Source: Bacteriovoracia bacterium
Lineage (GTDB): Bacteria > Bdellovibrionota > UBA1018 > JBFWNL01
Length of the DNA stretch: 64,000 nt
Assembly (NCBI GenBank): GCA_050251055.1
Contig: JBFWNL010000005.1
Location: forward strand, 64,001 to 128,000
Reading direction: 5' to 3'
Translations under genes and position numbers: made by a program
In this document: piece by piece, positions 58,202-64,000 of the stretch
Position numbering within the stretch: position 1 is the first letter of the stretch
How the letters are laid out: each line of letters begins with the position of its first letter
The notes under the pieces: model-generated
What the model saw: the letters and a program-made list of their open reading frames with translations, nothing else
Database searches by the model: none
Told to the model about the DNA's origin: nothing

Positions 58202-59149
58202 TTGGGGGGAGTCTTGAAGCAGAATCGTAATTTTTTTTGGGTGAGTTTACTGGGCGTCCTGGTCTTGGGCTCCGTAACGCCGGTGGAAGCGAATGTCTCT
58301 TCCGTGCTGCGCCGGTTGGCCGGCCCGATTGGCCGCTTCTTCGTCCAGGAAACGAGTGAGGGGCAAGCGCTTTTGCGCAGCCTGGGAGCGAGCGACGAAC
58401 GGGCCTTGGCCCTCAAGCTCATGGCTCCGGACGCGAACGAGCTTGCGAATAGCTTGGGCGGACGGTTGAGAACGATCGAGCGGGAACTCTTTTACCGCTC
58501 ATTGTTAGATGACGCATTCGACGCCGAATCAGTCCTGAGAACCTTGATCGCTTCCGAACTCAAGCTCGCGGCCCGCGTGCCGGGCCGGATATCCTTTGTC
58601 ATTTCCGAGACGGAAGAAACTTATCGAGCGACGGTACTCGCCGTGGAGGCCAAGTTGAAGGAAACCAAGCAGGCCTCCTCGTTAGTGGGAAAGGTCCTCG
58701 CGCGATCACAGTCCAAGTTCGTGGGGACTGAGCTGGATCTACGCTTCGGGCATTGGCAGAGCGTGAAGGCGGAGATGAATACGCCGGGATTGCGCGCGGG
58801 GCGCGCGGTATTCGAGGACTGTCAGTTAGTCGAGGCGGTTTGGTTGGACGCGCAGGCCGCCCGGGCCGAGATCGTCGGCGGCACGGTGGAAAACATGATT
58901 GCCGACGGCGCTAATTTCCAAAATTCGATTTGGCGTGGGCAGATTCGCATCGATGGCGCGAGCTTCCGCCACGCGGACTTTCGTGGAGCGGACATGCGCG
59001 GTATGGAGGCCGGAACTCTCTTCGACGCCGGCCGCGCCCACGGGCTGATTGGCCGCGTGGATTTCACGGGCGCGATCTTTGACGAGGCGACGAAGTTGCC
59101 CTTTCCGCGGGAACGGGCACTCGAGCTAGGGATGGTGTTTCTTCGGTAG
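58202..59149 (+). CDS. Secreted protein with C-terminal pentapeptide repeats
   Basis: ASFRHADFRGADMRG; capping motif GAIFDEATKLPF..LGM. Confidence 0.75.
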   Translation: MGGVLKQNRNFFWVSLLGVLVLGSVTPVEANVSSVLRRLAGPIGRFFVQETSEGQALLRSLGASDERALALKLMAPDANELANSLGGRLRTIERELFYRSLLDDAFDAESVLRTLIASELKLAARVPGRISFVISETEETYRATVLAVEAKLKETKQASSLVGKVLARSQSKFVGTELDLRFGHWQSVKAEMNTPGLRAGRAVFEDCQLVEAVWLDAQAARAEIVGGTVENMIADGANFQNSIWRGQIRIDGASFRHADFRGADMRGMEAGTLFDAGRAHGLIGRVDFTGAIFDEATKLPFPRERALELGMVFLR

Positions 59150-60280
59150 CTTCACTACGAAGCACGTCTGGGGACAGGCTTCGTCGATGTAGAGCTGGCC
59201 TCGGTGGCGGAGCACGATCTGCCGGGAGATGCTGAGACCTAGCCCGCTGCCCTGGCCGGGGGGTTTGGTGGTGAACAAGGGTTCGAAGATCCGGTGCCGC
59301 ACATTTTCGGGGACCCCCCTTCCGCCATCAGTTACCTTTATGCTCACGGTATCTGAGCTTGAGACGGATTCGATCCGAATCCACCGTCGATCGGCGGGCA
59401 GCCCCGTTACGGCATCGGTTGCGTTGTTCAGTAAATTCACAATCAGCTGAAAGATCTGTACCCCCGAGCATTCGGCTTCGAAATTTTCCAGCGGGGTTGA
59501 GATTTCGAGGCGTGCGTTCGCGTCCCTTAAACGGTGGGCGCAAAAATCCGCGGCTTCTTGGATGACTCGCGACAAATTGGTCTCTGTCACGACGGCGTTT
59601 TCGCCATCAGCCGAAAGCTTCCGCATTCCCTCCACGATCTCATTCGCCTTGCCGGAAGCGGCGTGAAGCTTCTCGATGACTTCGCGTAGTTTTATCAGAT
59701 CGGGAGGCATCGCCTCTAGGCGGCGCTGCAGCTCTTCCACGCGAAGCTGGATCACCGCCAGGGGATTGCGTACCTCGTGAGCGACGTGCATGGCCGCCTC
59801 GCCCGCGTTGACGAACTTGCCTAGCCGGGAGAGGTTTTTCTCGTGCATCTCAAGCCGTTGCTCTAGGCTGAGCAGTCTTCCGGCGAGCTCCGCCAGCGCG
59901 CATAGTCGTGCGCGCTGCACATCGGAGAGGTGCCGAGGTTCGCGATCCATCACGCAGAGCGTGCCGATCGCTTCCCCTCGTGAGTCGAGCACGGGAATCC
60001 CGGCATAAAAGCGCAGATCTGGATGCTTGCGTAAGATCGGAAAGTCGTAAGCCGCCGTATCTACGGAGATGTCGGGTATTTCGTGTAAGGATCGGGTCGA
60101 AAGAGCCTGCTCGCAAAACGCGCGTCCCCGAGGCTGTTCGTCCATTTCGATAGCGTGGGATGAGTAGGCTTTCCAACCCGTCTCGTCCACGCGGTTCAAC
60201 ATGGCATAGGGGGTCTCGCAAAGCTCGGATGCCAGCGTCACCCAGGTTTTTGCCACTGTATCCACGTCGGGGGAGCTCAT
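59126..60280 (-). CDS. GAF-domain sensor histidine kinase (cytoplasmic)
   Basis: RFYAGIP..GTLCVMD GAF; HEVRNPL, NLLNNA, DGGRG, GSGLGL. Confidence 0.93.
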   Translation of the reverse strand: MSSPDVDTVAKTWVTLASELCETPYAMLNRVDETGWKAYSSHAIEMDEQPRGRAFCEQALSTRSLHEIPDISVDTAAYDFPILRKHPDLRFYAGIPVLDSRGEAIGTLCVMDREPRHLSDVQRARLCALAELAGRLLSLEQRLEMHEKNLSRLGKFVNAGEAAMHVAHEVRNPLAVIQLRVEELQRRLEAMPPDLIKLREVIEKLHAASGKANEIVEGMRKLSADGENAVVTETNLSRVIQEAADFCAHRLRDANARLEISTPLENFEAECSGVQIFQLIVNLLNNATDAVTGLPADRRWIRIESVSSSDTVSIKVTDGGRGVPENVRHRIFEPLFTTKPPGQGSGLGLSISRQIVLRHRGQLYIDEACPQTCFVVKLPKKHHP

Positions 60281-60384: not shown

Positions 60385-61098
60385 ATGTGGTTAGCTTTAA
60401 TTAACTTGTCGCCATTCCGGTTTGCCCCGACGATTTCCCCACCTCAAATGACAAACGTAGGGTTTGGGTCTTTCTCATTTTCGCATTCAGTGCTGGGAAT
60501 CCAGTGGGAGAAGCACTTTCCCTGGCCCGCCACGCCGAGCATCGAGGTGCGGCCGGGAAGTTTTCCCCGCTTCATGGATTTTCTCCAGACCCATCAGGCC
60601 AGGCTATTCGCGGATTCAGTTTCCGCGGGGGGATTTCTGTCGGAGCCATTCAGTTCCAATAAGCGCCGGTACTACGAGTTAGCTGGCGACTTTCTCGAGT
60701 TCTTTGCGGACGGCCGACCCGTCGGTTATTTCATTGGCAACGTGCAGGACTGGAATACTTACTACTTGAGGTTCTGCGCGATATTGCCGGAGTACCGTGG
60801 ATCCCCCGCGTACGCGCGATTTTTACGACACCTTTTGGAGATCTTGCCGGTTTATGGCGTGGAAAGAGTGGAAGCCCACGTGTCTCCCGCGAACTTTGTA
60901 AACCTTCACATGCTGACGAAGCTGCAGTTCAACGTCTCTGGACAATGCCTCAGCGAGCGCTGGGGAGCGCTATTGCATTTTACGAAGTTCCTGAGCGCTC
61001 GGCATGAAAACGTCTTCCTGAAGCAGTTCTGTAATAGTGATTGGCCTCAGGTGAGGAATCGTGCTGGTTCCGATGATCTTACGCCGATGAGCGTGTGA
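60385..61098 (+). CDS. GNAT-fold acyltransferase (likely start ATG 60448)
   Basis: YYLRFCAILPEYRG, VSPAN....LTKLQF. Confidence 0.75.
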   Translation: MWLALINLSPFRFAPTISPPQMTNVGFGSFSFSHSVLGIQWEKHFPWPATPSIEVRPGSFPRFMDFLQTHQARLFADSVSAGGFLSEPFSSNKRRYYELAGDFLEFFADGRPVGYFIGNVQDWNTYYLRFCAILPEYRGSPAYARFLRHLLEILPVYGVERVEAHVSPANFVNLHMLTKLQFNVSGQCLSERWGALLHFTKFLSARHENVFLKQFCNSDWPQVRNRAGSDDLTPMSV

Positions 61099-61113
61099 AA
61101 GGGGGATTGGATC

Positions 61114-61143
61114 ATGAAAAAGTTCGCAAAATGGTGCGCCTAA
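61114..61143 (+). CDS. Putative 9-aa precursor peptide MKKFAKWCA (absent from the ORF track)
   Basis: AAGGGGGA RBS 7 nt before ATG AAA AAG TTC GCA AAA TGG TGC GCC TAA; lies between the GNAT and the HDO/YcaO genes. Confidence 0.65.
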   Translation: MKKFAKWCA

Positions 61144-61157
61144 TTTTCTGAACGAGT

Positions 61158-61198
61158 GTCTCCCTCGCGCCATCCCTCACGGGTGGCTCGGGGGAGGC
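61158..61198 (+). terminator. Stem-loop downstream of the mini-ORF
   Basis: GTCTCCCTCGCGCCATCC pairs with GGGTGGCTCGGGGGAGGC (17 of 18 pairs including G-U), 5-nt loop. Confidence 0.65.
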
Positions 61199-61220
61199 TT
61201 GAATTTTTCCTGGAGGTAAT

Positions 61221-61880
61221 GTGATTTCCGAAGTTATCCGTAAGACAATCGAAGACGAAACGAATAATATCCTGGCGGAAAACCGCCTAGTGGCGAAGGT
61301 GAAGAGCGGCCAGCTGGACCCCCGTGATTTTCGCCTCTATCTATATAATTTAAAATACGCTTTCTCCAATACTCCACCCAATCTCGAGCGGGCGGCTCGC
61401 CTCGCCGCTGAGCGAGGACATTCGTTGGTTTCCGAGTTCATGCTGGAAAAGCTAAGCGAAGAGATCGGACACGATCTATGGCCCGAAGCCGATCTGAAGA
61501 AAACCTCCGACCTGGCGAATCCCGAGGGCGAGAATCTGTACGTTACTCAGGCGACGAAAGACCTCATGGATTATACGGCCGCGGTCGTCACCGAAGATCC
61601 CCGCGTTTATCTTTCCTATCTTACCTTCACCGAATACTTTACGGTGCTGGCCGCCCCGCAGTTCCTGCAGGACATGGAAGACAAGTGCGGTATCGCCAAA
61701 GATAAGGTGAGCGCGATTGCCAATCACGAAGAATCCGACCGCGAGCACTCGAAGGAAGATTTCAAGGTTTTCGATCAGCTGGAGATGGACGATCAGTTGC
61801 GCGAACAGCTCGTGACCGCGGTCAAGCGTTCCGCGCGTTTGGTCGGCAACGCCATGAACGCTTGTGTTCAGGCGTCATGA
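61221..61880 (+). CDS. Heme-oxygenase-like diiron oxidase (PqqC/CADD/TenA superfamily)
   Basis: EEIGH, FTE, HEESDREH ligand pattern; GGAGG RBS. Confidence 0.8.
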   Translation: MISEVIRKTIEDETNNILAENRLVAKVKSGQLDPRDFRLYLYNLKYAFSNTPPNLERAARLAAERGHSLVSEFMLEKLSEEIGHDLWPEADLKKTSDLANPEGENLYVTQATKDLMDYTAAVVTEDPRVYLSYLTFTEYFTVLAAPQFLQDMEDKCGIAKDKVSAIANHEESDREHSKEDFKVFDQLEMDDQLREQLVTAVKRSARLVGNAMNACVQAS

Positions 61881-62899
61881 GGCCGGAGTGGCCGGCGTTG
61901 CCGGCGGGGTGCGGGCTGCTCGAGGTCTTTGAGTCCGAGTTCGCCCTTGGCGCCACGAGCTACCGCATGGTGGGCATGAGCGCGCCCTCGAGCCGCCATG
62001 GCGAGGTGGTCGGCAGCGCCGTGGGTACGGGACCGGACACATCCCAGCGCGCATATTTCGAGCTCTGGGAACGTGCGGTCCTGTTCGATGCGGACGCGCG
62101 CGCGCAGGAGGACACGGAGCATCCCGGGTTTCCCGGGTTGGCTTTCGATGGAACGCCGCTGGGCCGGTTGGAGCCGACCGCGGTTTTCCCACGTTCCCCG
62201 AGTCCGGAAACTTGGACTTATGCGCGATCTAGCGGAGTAGCGGCGCATGCTGATCTGACCCGGGCGTGCATGTCCGCGGTTTGGGAGTTGATCGAGCGAG
62301 ATCGCGTCTTGCGTGCTTGGTGGGGGCAGTACGTGCCGCGTCCCCTGAGTGGCGTTCCTGCCGGGGCACTGGAGACCGTGAACGAGCGGTTCGCGGCCCG
62401 ATTTTGGGATTTTGGCTGCGGAGTGGTGGGCGTATTCGGACCCGCGCGTCAGTCGGGCAAGCCATTTCTGATGGGATTTGGCGCCGGCGCTAACGTGGCC
62501 GAGGCTTGCGATCACGCCTTGCGGGATGCGATTCAACGGGTGGCTTTTCTCTGGGATGAGCCCGCCGCGGATCCGAATCCACAGGCGGAGATCGAGTTTC
62601 GGCCCTCCGTCGACTTCCACTTGGAGAGCTTCCTGCTTCCGCGCAGCTTTGATCGCGTGCAGGCGTGGCTTGACGGAAAGCATCTAGGTCGCGTACCGGG
62701 GTTGGTCCCGGCGGCGCCGGAGGCCTACCGGCTGGAGAGCTTCGCTTTCGCGGATATTACCCCGGAGGGGAGCCGATCCCACGGTCGCGTCGTGCGCGCG
62801 ATTTCGCCCGTTCTGATTCCGTTGTGCTTTGGACGCGGAAACGCGCGGGTGGCTCCAGGCGGGATGCCCGAAGGGCTATGGATTCATCCCTTCGCCTGA
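61877..62899 (+). CDS. YcaO-family protein (compact)
   Basis: AYFELWER, SSGVAAH, ELIERD ATP-binding motifs; C-terminus IHPFA; ATGA coupling to the HDO gene. Confidence 0.8.
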   Translation: MRPEWPALPAGCGLLEVFESEFALGATSYRMVGMSAPSSRHGEVVGSAVGTGPDTSQRAYFELWERAVLFDADARAQEDTEHPGFPGLAFDGTPLGRLEPTAVFPRSPSPETWTYARSSGVAAHADLTRACMSAVWELIERDRVLRAWWGQYVPRPLSGVPAGALETVNERFAARFWDFGCGVVGVFGPARQSGKPFLMGFGAGANVAEACDHALRDAIQRVAFLWDEPAADPNPQAEIEFRPSVDFHLESFLLPRSFDRVQAWLDGKHLGRVPGLVPAAPEAYRLESFAFADITPEGSRSHGRVVRAISPVLIPLCFGRGNARVAPGGMPEGLWIHPFA

Positions 62900-63565
62900 G
62901 AGGGTGTAGCCGTCGGGCGACTGAAACTGAATTTCGACGTCTAACTGGGATAACTTCTTCCGTAAATTGTACAGATGCACGTCGAGTGTTTTTGCGGAAA
63001 CCGTGACGTTCTTCCAAACTTCATCCTGCATTTCCTTGCGGCGGACGATGCGGCCGCGCGCGCGGTGCAGGAGGGAAAAGATTTGAAGCTCTCGTGCGGT
63101 CAATTGCGCCAAAACGTCATCCCCCTTCTTGAGGGCTAGGGCAGTGGGGTCGAAGGTGAATTTGGAATCCAGGTTTCCGCGGGTAGCGGGAGTGAGAAAG
63201 AACCGCTCGATTTTCACGATTAGCTCTGAGCGCGTAAACGGCTTAGTCAGGTAGTCAATGGCGCCTTCCTTGAAGCAGGTCTGCAGAATTTCGATGTTGT
63301 CGCAGGACGACACTACCAGGAAAGGGATCGAATTGGGCAGCAGGGCTTCTTGCTGGGAAAGGAACTCGAAGAAATGCCCGTCCGGAAGGGTAAGATCGGC
63401 GATGAGCAGATGGGGCGTCTCCGCGGCGTTGGCTTTCAGAGCCTTGAAGTTTTCGCTAAATTCTCGCAGGCATTTAAAGATCCGTATTTCATATTTGCTG
63501 CCTAATATCTCTCGATAGACAAAGAGCGCGTCGGTATCATCCTCTACGATCCAGATCTTTTTCAT
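62876..63565 (-). CDS. OmpR-type response regulator
   Basis: IVEDD, DLTLPDG, DYLTKPF receiver; winged-helix LDVHLYNLRKKL. Confidence 0.92.
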   Translation of the reverse strand: MKKIWIVEDDTDALFVYREILGSKYEIRIFKCLREFSENFKALKANAAETPHLLIADLTLPDGHFFEFLSQQEALLPNSIPFLVVSSCDNIEILQTCFKEGAIDYLTKPFTRSELIVKIERFFLTPATRGNLDSKFTFDPTALALKKGDDVLAQLTARELQIFSLLHRARGRIVRRKEMQDEVWKNVTVSAKTLDVHLYNLRKKLSQLDVEIQFQSPDGYTLSGEGMNP

Positions 63566-63999
63566 ACGAATTCCTCAAGGCGAGTCGATGTCGTTGGAGT
63601 TTCCACCCTCATCCCCGGCTTTTCGGCCGCAGCGCGGGGCAGGCGTAGGTTGAAGTGACTACCCGGTAGGCCGGTCGGATCCATCGCTTCCAAGGTTCCC
63701 CCCGCGAGCTCCACTAGCCGGCGGGTCAAACGTAATCCTAACCCGATTCGGGCCTGGGAGTTCGTGAGTTGCTCAAAGCGTTCCGGAGTCAAGCCGCTGC
63801 CGTAGTCCCGGATGGAAATCTCGACCGCGTCCGCAGATTCGGCGACGAGGCTAACCTCGATCGTGCACTCGGCCAAGCGGAGAGACGCTCGGTGGCGCAG
63901 AAAATCTTCGATACTGTTGCGATACAAGTTATCCAGGATATGAATTAGGTCAATTTGGGGCATGCTCACCCTGACACTGTGAAGGGCCGGATCCAGCGG
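63562..63999 (-). CDS. Histidine kinase, C-terminal HATPase part (truncated by the window end)
   Basis: NLYRNS, DYGSG, GLGL; frame is open to the window edge; 4-nt overlap with the response regulator. Confidence 0.8.
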   Translation of the reverse strand, partial: PLDPALHSVRVSMPQIDLIHILDNLYRNSIEDFLRHRASLRLAECTIEVSLVAESADAVEISIRDYGSGLTPERFEQLTNSQARIGLGLRLTRRLVELAGGTLEAMDPTGLPGSHFNLRLPRAAAEKPGMRVETPTTSTRLEEFV

Positions 64000-64000
64000 G

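Follow-up and report, generated by a model that had tools for sequence, protein, structure and literature searches.

The locus described here raises the question of whether an open reading frame (ORF) of nine codons, placed between a GNAT N-acetyltransferase gene and the paired genes of a heme-oxygenase-like dimetal oxidase (HDO) and a standalone YcaO enzyme, is a gene at all and, if it is, what its peptide is for. It lies in a 64,000-nucleotide (nt) stretch of a Bacteriovoracia genome (assembly GCA_050251055.1, contig JBFWNL010000005.1, positions 64,001 to 128,000 of the forward strand), which we refer to as the window and whose numbering is used below. We find that this mini-ORF, too short for gene callers, is very probably a real, functionally linked gene, and that it probably encodes the precursor of a minimal ribosomally made, post-translationally modified peptide (RiPP) formed by the mechanism set out below. 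The system is a widespread family in the Bdellovibrionota and Myxococcota. A preliminary description of the window, made from its letters alone, had pointed to a GNAT gene, a ribosome-binding site, a 30-nt ORF, a stem-loop and a coupled HDO-YcaO pair, and all of these parts are present:

60385..61098, plus strand: GNAT N-acetyltransferase of 237 residues, counted from the first ATG; stop codon TGA at 61096-61098; Pfam family PF00583
61100..61106, plus strand: Shine-Dalgarno site AGGGGGA of the mini-ORF, its last base 8 nt before the ATG
61114..61143, plus strand: mini-ORF encoding MKKFAKWCA, the candidate precursor peptide; nine codons plus TAA (61141-61143), with Cys8 as the conserved penultimate Cys/Ser/Thr
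61158..61198, plus strand: GC-rich hairpin, terminator-like or mRNA-stabilising; 41 nt, with 10 bp plus 7 bp and a 5-nt loop
61221..61880, plus strand: HDO of 219 residues; GTG start and TGA stop, with GGAGG at 61212-61216
61877..62899, plus strand: standalone YcaO of 340 residues with the C-terminus ...WIHPFA; PF02624

Direct reading of the sequence gives the mini-ORF as ATG AAA AAG TTC GCA AAA TGG TGC GCC TAA, with its ATG 15 nt past the GNAT stop. A T run (TTTTT, 61204-61208) lies 3' of the hairpin, and the HDO stop and YcaO start overlap by 4 nt (ATGA).

Taken alone, a 9-codon ORF in the 122-nt gap between the GNAT and HDO genes is uninformative, as 10,394 ORFs of 9-10 codons are present in its own 3.77-Mb genome. 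A search for YcaO in 41 genomes of the same order (its own included) found a homologue in eight. In each of these the HDO gene adjoins the YcaO gene, and a mini-ORF preceded by a Shine-Dalgarno site of its own is found just 5' of the pair, between the upstream gene and the HDO gene, the eight peptides following M-K/R-K-(K/L)-F/Y-A-x-x-S/C-x. The scan was then widened to genome contigs, which gave 39 loci, to metagenome contigs, which gave 45, and to 401 genomes of the phylum, which gave 30; once duplicates were removed there were 104 distinct loci: 46 with HDO and YcaO, drawn from Bdellovibrionota, Myxococcota and metagenomes, 44 controls with distant HDO paralogues only or with nothing, and 14 further loci with peptide and HDO and no YcaO match, mostly on contigs that end soon after the HDO gene. 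The preliminary description had suggested scanning HDO-YcaO homologues for a conserved mini-ORF of the form MKK..WC. An ORF of 9-12 residues, M-K-K-(K)-F/Y-A-x-x-[Cys/Ser/Thr]-x-stop, was picked up by an automatic pattern in 41 of the 46 HDO plus YcaO loci, and a longer precursor in a forty-second (L029, 57 residues), against none of the 44 controls. The conserved short ORF was strongly borne out. The Trp is not conserved among the family peptides, so that the motif is F/Y-A-x-x-[C/S/T]-x and the WC of that description is not general. Three of the other four loci have no DNA 5' of the HDO gene (L032, L064 and L065), and the last (L078) reads past the usual stop. In the genome of the window itself the family pattern fits one of the 10,394 ORFs of this size, the one at 61114.

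Within the phylum scan the loci separate by the strength of the HDO match. Both YcaO and peptide accompany all 18 of the strong matches (E <= 7e-35; 16 by pattern, L108 and L113 by eye), and neither accompanies any of the 12 weaker ones. Conservation of the mini-ORF is far beyond chance.

The make-up of the peptide family indicates what is being conserved. We built a codon table on 43 distinct nucleotide versions of the mini-ORF, in which Lys2 is written AAA in 16 and AAG in 25, the Phe is TTC in 23 and TTT in 15, the Ala uses all four of its codons and the stop is TAA (22), TGA (15) or TAG (6). The penultimate residue is Cys in 18 versions, Ser in 16 (AGC in nine, TCN in seven) and Thr in nine, which accounts for all 43, and it is again Cys, Ser or Thr in every further variant seen beyond these. 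The stop always follows exactly one residue later, that last residue being Phe (22), Leu (6), Ile (6), Val (3), Met (3), Thr (2) or Ala (1), and a Shine-Dalgarno-like site is present no more than 18 nt upstream in 43 of 43 versions. As synonymous codons, both classes of Ser codon and all three stops are in use, selection acts on the peptide and not on the RNA; the C-terminal Cys/Ser/Thr-x-stop and the exact length are under selection at the amino-acid level. Apart from the penultimate Cys/Ser/Thr, no functional side chain of the peptide is conserved.

N-terminally longer variants also occur, with a 12-mer in L108, another 12-mer in L031 and a 16-mer in L068. The most extended version is the 57-residue precursor of L029 (L029:3771-3944, plus strand), encoded 5' of the HDO-YcaO pair on a contig of a Bdellovibrionota metagenome-assembled genome. 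It has five cores of the form A-x-x-[S/C]-F with Ser-Pro-(Glu) spacers between them, and no protease gene was found in its locus. This arrangement implies that the A-x-x-[S/C/T]-x unit is what matters and that the Lys-rich start is dispensable; the latter presumably serves mainly to aid translation of so short an ORF. Outside the family, an 18-residue ORF (MKK...EVTF; L037:906-962, plus strand) lies about 100 nt 5' of a distant HDO without YcaO on a Brasilonema bromeliae contig, and may be either chance or a different peptide-HDO pairing.

A short ORF followed by a strong hairpin with a T run, directly 5' of an operon, could also be a regulatory leader peptide, in which translation of the ORF together with the hairpin would attenuate the HDO-YcaO operon and the peptide itself would be functionless. 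The whole GNAT-HDO gap, taken as 131 nt, folds at -45 kcal/mol (z = -1.65) and the 80 nt after the mini-ORF stop reach z = -3.0 in the window; across 42 orthologues the same 80 nt have a median z of -3.0, with z < -2 in 30. A simple promoter/terminator scan found no more than is expected of shuffled sequence and missed the hairpin. Hairpins 3' of the precursor gene are usual in RiPP operons, and the structure after the ORF fits an attenuator and a RiPP-style partial terminator equally well, so that the decision between them falls to other features of the family. In L030 the ORF lies 3' of the YcaO gene on the opposite strand, whilst in L031 it again occupies the other strand, reading divergently from the kinase gene at a distance of 2.4 kb from the HDO gene, and an ORF displaced from the HDO start in this manner is not a cis-acting leader. 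The multi-core version of L029 is equally out of keeping with attenuation, as are the five of 42 orthologues in which the post-ORF stretch folds no more stably than its shuffled versions (z > 0) and the loci in which the ORF almost abuts the HDO start (L016, L012 and L024). Nor would an attenuator need a selected C-terminal Cys/Ser/Thr-x-stop and an exact length. Owing to L030, L031, L029 and the hairpin-less loci we rejected the leader-peptide attenuator, which we regard as highly improbable, and continue with the mini-ORF as the gene of a precursor peptide.

The HDO is the enzyme to which this peptide is most closely tied. In the window it has no Pfam match (E <= 1) and no NCBIfam match of its own, and its identity comes from its relatives and its fold: seven of eight orthologues match PF14518 (best E 2.7e-8), and a profile of the eight matches the heme-oxygenase-like domain of unknown function in Protein Data Bank entry 3dde (1.3e-17) and also CADD, a 4-aminobenzoate (pABA) synthase, and UndA. 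The AlphaFold model (predicted local distance difference test score, pLDDT, 95) has the seven-helix heme-oxygenase-like fold, matching CADD (1rcw, 8vag) and 3dde in Foldseek with template modelling (TM) scores of 0.79-0.84, and its structure neighbours in the Atlas are all PF14518 clusters. Seven residues (E80, E81, H84, E138, H169, D173 and H176) are unchanged in 51 of 51 orthologues and form a predicted set of three His and three or four carboxylate ligands, which we take, by analogy and not from a superposition, to be the counterparts of the CADD metal ligands. The preliminary description had named this middle gene a diiron HDO, and the orthologue profile, the PF14518 matches, the fold and the invariant predicted ligands bear it out. 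Fold and ligand set are likewise those of CADD, UndA, BesC and SznF, for which a 2026 review gives seven helices, 3-His/3-4-carboxylate ligands, desaturation and oxidative decarboxylation next to a carboxylate (PMC13108848). The characterised enzymes of this kind act on free amino acids, fatty acids or their own residues, with the exception of VarO of thiovarsolin biosynthesis, whereas the HDO here is tied to a ribosomal mini-peptide. A complex prediction for YcaO and HDO scored 0.00; it was run without controls and counts neither for nor against binding. A second HDO paralogue is present in the same genome outside the window (G000:C9:99975-100598, plus strand; profile E 1.5e-19), and weaker paralogues of this sort are common in the phylum, in 87 of the 105 genomes that gave a match; the 12 such loci examined are the ones without YcaO and peptide.

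The second conserved enzyme is a bare YcaO domain (PF02624 at 48.6 bits against a gathering cut-off of 25.7, E 9.1e-13), a result that a search of the whole genome repeated. The Glu-x-x-Glu-Arg stretches of E. coli YcaO bind ATP and Mg, and two such motifs here (E62, E65, E137, E140 and R141) are invariant in 39 orthologues, as is H337, with P338 in at least 90%. A profile search of a library of 1.84 billion sequences returned 478 representatives (at 50% identity) with E <= 1e-30. The top 150 of these are all full-length matches of 314-515 residues (median 338), and 145 of the top 148 carry an ExxER motif in the N-terminal part, whilst 145 of 148 end in HP-x-x. Azol(in)e-forming YcaOs have a Pro-rich C-terminal tail, PxPxP; the tail here also contains Pro and is conserved, in a different form, HP-x-x-COOH. 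A word-based protein search gave eight matches, none with a name, and the group is a sizeable, uniform, unnamed family. The AlphaFold model (pLDDT 92.9) leaves little doubt of the fold, every Foldseek match with E <= 1e-5, among the matches listed, being a YcaO structure. In two loci (L054 and L069) the YcaO gene stands upstream of GNAT-peptide-HDO and not downstream of the HDO gene. Another YcaO is encoded in the same genome outside the window (G000:C5:269995-270414, minus strand, locus L094; 354 residues, ...LPHFVP), 3' of a carboxymuconolactone-decarboxylase/AhpD-like gene with CxxC that was named by eye and not by domain search. It has no HDO, no convincing short ORF was seen in its 400-nt gap, and we treated it as unrelated to the system.

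On the chemistry of this YcaO the evidence points in more than one direction. No E1-like, Ocin-ThiF or RiPP recognition element (RRE) partner is fused to the 340-residue domain or found among its conserved neighbours, and no protease, exporter or further enzyme is conserved in the cluster neighbourhood. TfuA (PF07812) was not found in the genome of the window (93.5% complete) or in five other carriers (90-97% complete), a control genome being matched, and a SagB-type flavin dehydrogenase was not found in the genome of the window. The preliminary description had likewise seen no E1/RRE partner, flavin dehydrogenase, protease or transporter, and this holds for the conserved neighbourhood. In the absence of TfuA this is not a TfuA-YcaO thioamide system, and with neither E1/RRE partner nor flavin dehydrogenase, and a SagD score below cut-off, it is not a canonical azole-peptide synthetase.

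Cyclodehydration to an azoline is nonetheless the activity we moderately favour, on account of the single position at which Cys, Ser and Thr strictly replace one another. The preliminary description had proposed that the Cys becomes a thiazoline, and the sole functional side chain conserved, the penultimate Cys/Ser/Thr, is of the kind that a cyclodehydrating YcaO requires. The alternative is that the peptide is a ribosomal precursor whose backbone the YcaO thioamidates without TfuA, like the archaeal YcaOs that modify McrA, or converts to an amidine, or that the enzyme acts as an ATP-dependent peptidase, with Cys/Ser/Thr serving as the HDO target or as a recognition element. Two comparisons tell against azoline chemistry: the window YcaO scores 48.8 bits against TIGR03604 (SagD), far under the cut-off of 219.25, and Foldseek ranks the archaeal thioamide-forming YcaOs of M. 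kandleri and M. jannaschii first (5e-10 to 7e-9), with LynD (1e-8), TruD and McbD narrowly behind. The sequence profile has TruD in the lead at 2.2e-9, with MusD, LynD and McbD as further near relatives and the thioamide-forming MJ1094 (1.5e-7) among them. The alternative also draws on the peptide-HDO pairs without an adjacent YcaO in four loci, described below, and on the thiovarsolin pathway, the sole published combination of YcaO and heme-oxygenase-like enzyme, which yields a thioamide (PMC6511847). Set against this are the interchange of Cys, Ser and Thr (43 of 43 versions), which marks side-chain cyclodehydration and plays no part in thioamidation, the failure to find TfuA in any of the six genomes, and TIGR03604, a thiazole/oxazole maturase family, which is the only NCBIfam match for eight of eight members. 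We consider a non-azoline YcaO unlikely.

The third enzyme, the GNAT (PF00583, Acetyltransf_1; 34.2 bits against a gathering cut-off of 20.7, E 3.4e-8), resembles its orthologues from near residue 37 onwards in an alignment of 13 sequences, and the nearest solved relatives of its profile are YqjY, RimI, YpeA and Naa30/Naa50, which are N-alpha- and small-amine acetyltransferases. Acetylation of the peptide N-terminus or of a Lys would be the simplest reading of its role.

From these components we propose the following pathway. The standalone YcaO would spend ATP on activating the residue-7 amide carbonyl, that of Trp in the window, and this carbonyl would be attacked by the side chain of Cys8, the penultimate residue (in relatives Ser or Thr), to give a thiazoline (or an oxazoline or methyloxazoline). 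The O2-dependent dimetal HDO would then carry out a two-electron oxidation of the C-terminal unit, by analogy with thiovarsolin. Our first choice for this step is oxidation of the azoline to an azole, which would work for every last residue including the Ala of the window, and it is ranked first as no flavin dehydrogenase is present. As a second choice, the last residue would be desaturated, as a C-terminal Arg is by VarO, or oxidatively decarboxylated. This would account for the single residue, with its beta-hydrogen and free carboxylate, that comes after the heterocycle, the decarboxylation idea being built on UndA-type chemistry. The GNAT would acetylate an amino group of the peptide, at the N-terminus or a Lys, and the hairpin 3' of the peptide gene may provide for more peptide mRNA than enzyme mRNA. 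The adjacent membrane histidine kinase and response regulator would either sense the product or control its synthesis; in other lineages a Ser/Thr kinase-STAND ATPase or a 7TMR-DISM kinase could take this part.

Several observations weigh against this account of the locus. The window peptide is atypical for its family, having nine residues and a Trp at -3 and being the sole one that ends in Ala. No protease or exporter is conserved that would point to the final form or destination of the product. The GNAT, which the preliminary description had counted as a member of the system, adjoins the peptide gene in 33 of the 46 HDO plus YcaO loci and is not beside the cluster in the other 13; its clear absence from the eight of these with ample upstream DNA makes it accessory, so that it belongs to many of the clusters and is not a constant part of them. 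Four loci (L020, L031, L062 and L066) have peptide and HDO with no YcaO within 2.5-4 kb even by profile, their layout being GNAT-peptide-HDO or peptide / 7TMR-DISM kinase-HDO, beside a sensor kinase. In the two of these that come from assembled genomes (L020 and L031) a family YcaO is encoded elsewhere, one of them (L127) unlinked to any HDO or peptide. The link between peptide and HDO is accordingly tighter than that between peptide and YcaO, and is the tightest in the system. Lastly, the closest single HDO homologue (L048:2636-3292, plus strand, on a metagenome contig; tblastn, 35% identity, 7e-41) stands alone, in a locus without YcaO, GNAT or mini-ORF. It is divergent from an ORF that resembles a 2-oxoglutarate (2OG)-Fe(II) oxygenase, by eye and not by domain search.

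It might also be that the peptide is a real product yet not the substrate of the enzymes, for example a membrane-active or kinase-signalling peptide, with HDO, YcaO and GNAT acting on a small molecule or a protein. The E. coli type of YcaO has been linked to a ribosomal protein, which we count towards this possibility, as we do the position of sensor kinases as the most constant neighbours. Most characterised HDOs use free amino or fatty acids (PMC13108848). The peptide nevertheless co-occurs only with this HDO subfamily, in 18 of 18 strong loci against none of the 12 paralogue loci of the phylum, the single functional residue that it conserves suits the chemistry of a YcaO, a multi-core precursor like that of L029 is what one expects of a substrate peptide, and no gene of an alternative substrate pathway is conserved. 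We judge it very unlikely that the enzymes act on something else, and retain the peptide as their probable substrate.

By analogy, the system most resembles thiovarsolin biosynthesis in Streptomyces varsoviensis, whose pathway comprises the precursor VarA, the YcaO VarY, the TfuA protein VarT and the heme-oxygenase-like VarO (PMC6511847). Its products are N-acetylated Ala-Pro-Arg tripeptides with a thioamide, made from precursors that range from a single core to five repeats, and VarO is required for the C-beta/C-gamma double bond in the C-terminal Arg; the pathway has no encoded protease and no known acetyltransferase (PMC6511847). Both systems pair a YcaO with a heme-oxygenase-like oxidase on a ribosomal peptide, have single- to five-core precursors and no dedicated protease, and the thiovarsolin products are tiny, with VarO oxidising the C-terminal residue beside the bond that the YcaO modifies. 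The differences are as clear: thiovarsolin has TfuA and a thioamide, whereas here TfuA was not found in six of six genomes and Cys/Ser/Thr is conserved; VarA has a leader peptide, whereas the whole precursor here is 9-12 residues; a GNAT in the cluster and sensor-kinase neighbours are found here; and thiovarsolin belongs to Actinobacteria, the present family to Bdellovibrionota and Myxococcota. The GNAT would supply an activity that thiovarsolin biosynthesis borrows from its host. A March 2026 review of HDOs gives the VarO work as the sole ribosomal-peptide case (PMC13108848).

The azol(in)e cyclodehydratases McbD, LynD, TruD and SagD share with the window enzyme the YcaO fold, the ATP-site motifs and a Cys/Ser/Thr in the core. 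They differ in that the present enzyme scores below the family cut-off, has only 340 residues and works without an E1-like, Ocin-ThiF or RRE partner and without a flavin mononucleotide (FMN) dehydrogenase, and the precursor lacks a leader of the usual length and offers a single modifiable residue. Standalone YcaOs are known from bottromycin (BotC and BotCD), whose precursors have no N-terminal leader. These enzymes, AmiD and the archaeal McrA-thioamidating YcaOs (6cib, 6pe3), which are the closest structures, also have no fused or partner recognition domain; unlike the window enzyme they form amidines or thioamides on much longer peptides or on a protein, and none is paired with an HDO. Very short precursors are known too, microcin C7 coming from the 7-residue MccA, with a GNAT domain in the self-immunity protein MccE, and biarylitide from the 5-residue BytA. 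Here the likeness is in precursor genes of 18-30 nt missed by annotation, one or few enzymes alongside and, for the microcin C cluster, a GNAT; the difference is in the enzymes, an MccB adenylyltransferase and a cytochrome P450, respectively, with no YcaO or HDO. The survey around streptamidine AmiD was limited to Actinobacteria (PMC8442711). A description of the present family was not found in the literature on YcaO enzymes, heme-oxygenase-like or diiron enzymes, or RiPPs in Bdellovibrionota and Myxococcota (subscription-only papers and supplements being outside the scope of that search). The preliminary description had not recognised the system as a described class, and this holds for the family as such; for the combination of a YcaO with a heme-oxygenase-like enzyme the thiovarsolins are a published precedent (PMC6511847).

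What is conserved around the peptide-HDO unit are signalling genes. The earlier account of the neighbourhood had left out the sensor kinases, which we find to be constant neighbours in all three lineages of the family. In the window they are represented by two genes on the opposite strand:

62876..63565, minus strand: OmpR-type response regulator (Pfam Response_reg and Trans_reg_C), convergent with the YcaO gene
63562..64000, minus strand: 3' part of a membrane histidine kinase of 561 residues, which extends past the window end to G000:C5:129247

The complete kinase gene (L095:763-2448) matches HATPase_c at 5.7e-12 and encodes five hydrophobic windows of 19 residues (two of them overlapping) within its first 245 residues. 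The 3' ends of the YcaO (plus strand) and response-regulator (minus strand) genes overlap by 24 nt (62876-62899), and such convergent, overlapping transcription could couple their expression. On the other side of the cluster lie genes for a pentapeptide-repeat protein (58202-59149, plus strand) and a GAF-domain histidine kinase (59126-60280, minus strand), neither of which is conserved with the cluster elsewhere. Genes past the window end (for a histidine kinase, an HtrA-like protease, a second histidine kinase, an aminotransferase and an alcohol dehydrogenase) were considered as parts of the system and set aside, none being conserved across loci.

In the Bdellovibrionota the typical neighbours are this convergent OmpR-type regulator, with homologues in 21 of the 46 HDO plus YcaO loci, and a polytopic membrane histidine kinase; homologues of the kinase in the window are found in 13 loci. 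In ten loci of the Myxococcota, and in L066, the neighbour is a fusion of a Ser/Thr kinase with an AAA_16 STAND ATPase, whilst in the five GNAT-less loci of the Oligoflexus type it is a 7TMR-DISM histidine kinase. Loci without YcaO keep their sensor-kinase neighbours. That one kind of peptide-HDO unit is accompanied by three sensor types with no relation to each other suggests that its product either acts as a signal or is made in response to one. A far more specific scheme is possible, one that we put forward tentatively and think rather doubtful as a whole: the clusters would make a minimal peptide signal, an N-acetylated peptide of 9-10 residues ending in an azole, or a C-terminal fragment of it, in which the HDO would be the first enzyme to oxidise a YcaO-made azoline with O2 and without flavin, or else an oxidative decarboxylase of a peptide C-terminus, and this product would be the ligand of the co-inherited sensor kinase, forming an agr-like circuit in predatory Bdellovibrionota and Myxococcota.

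If the proposed precursor is confirmed, the mini-ORF would rank with the shortest known genes and RiPP precursors, and we know of no precursor this short for a YcaO enzyme. It would also mean that a YcaO of 340 residues recognises its substrate without leader or partner, which bears on how standalone YcaOs choose their substrates, and with several hundred clusters (478 representatives at 50% identity) the YcaO family offers many examples. The HDO would be only the second heme-oxygenase-like dimetal enzyme to act on a ribosomal peptide, after VarO, going by the cases that the review lists (PMC13108848), and as the peptide is a cheap synthetic substrate its chemistry is directly testable. Its link to sensor kinases, seen in three lineages of bacteria with a predatory or social habit, suggests that the peptide may be a signal.

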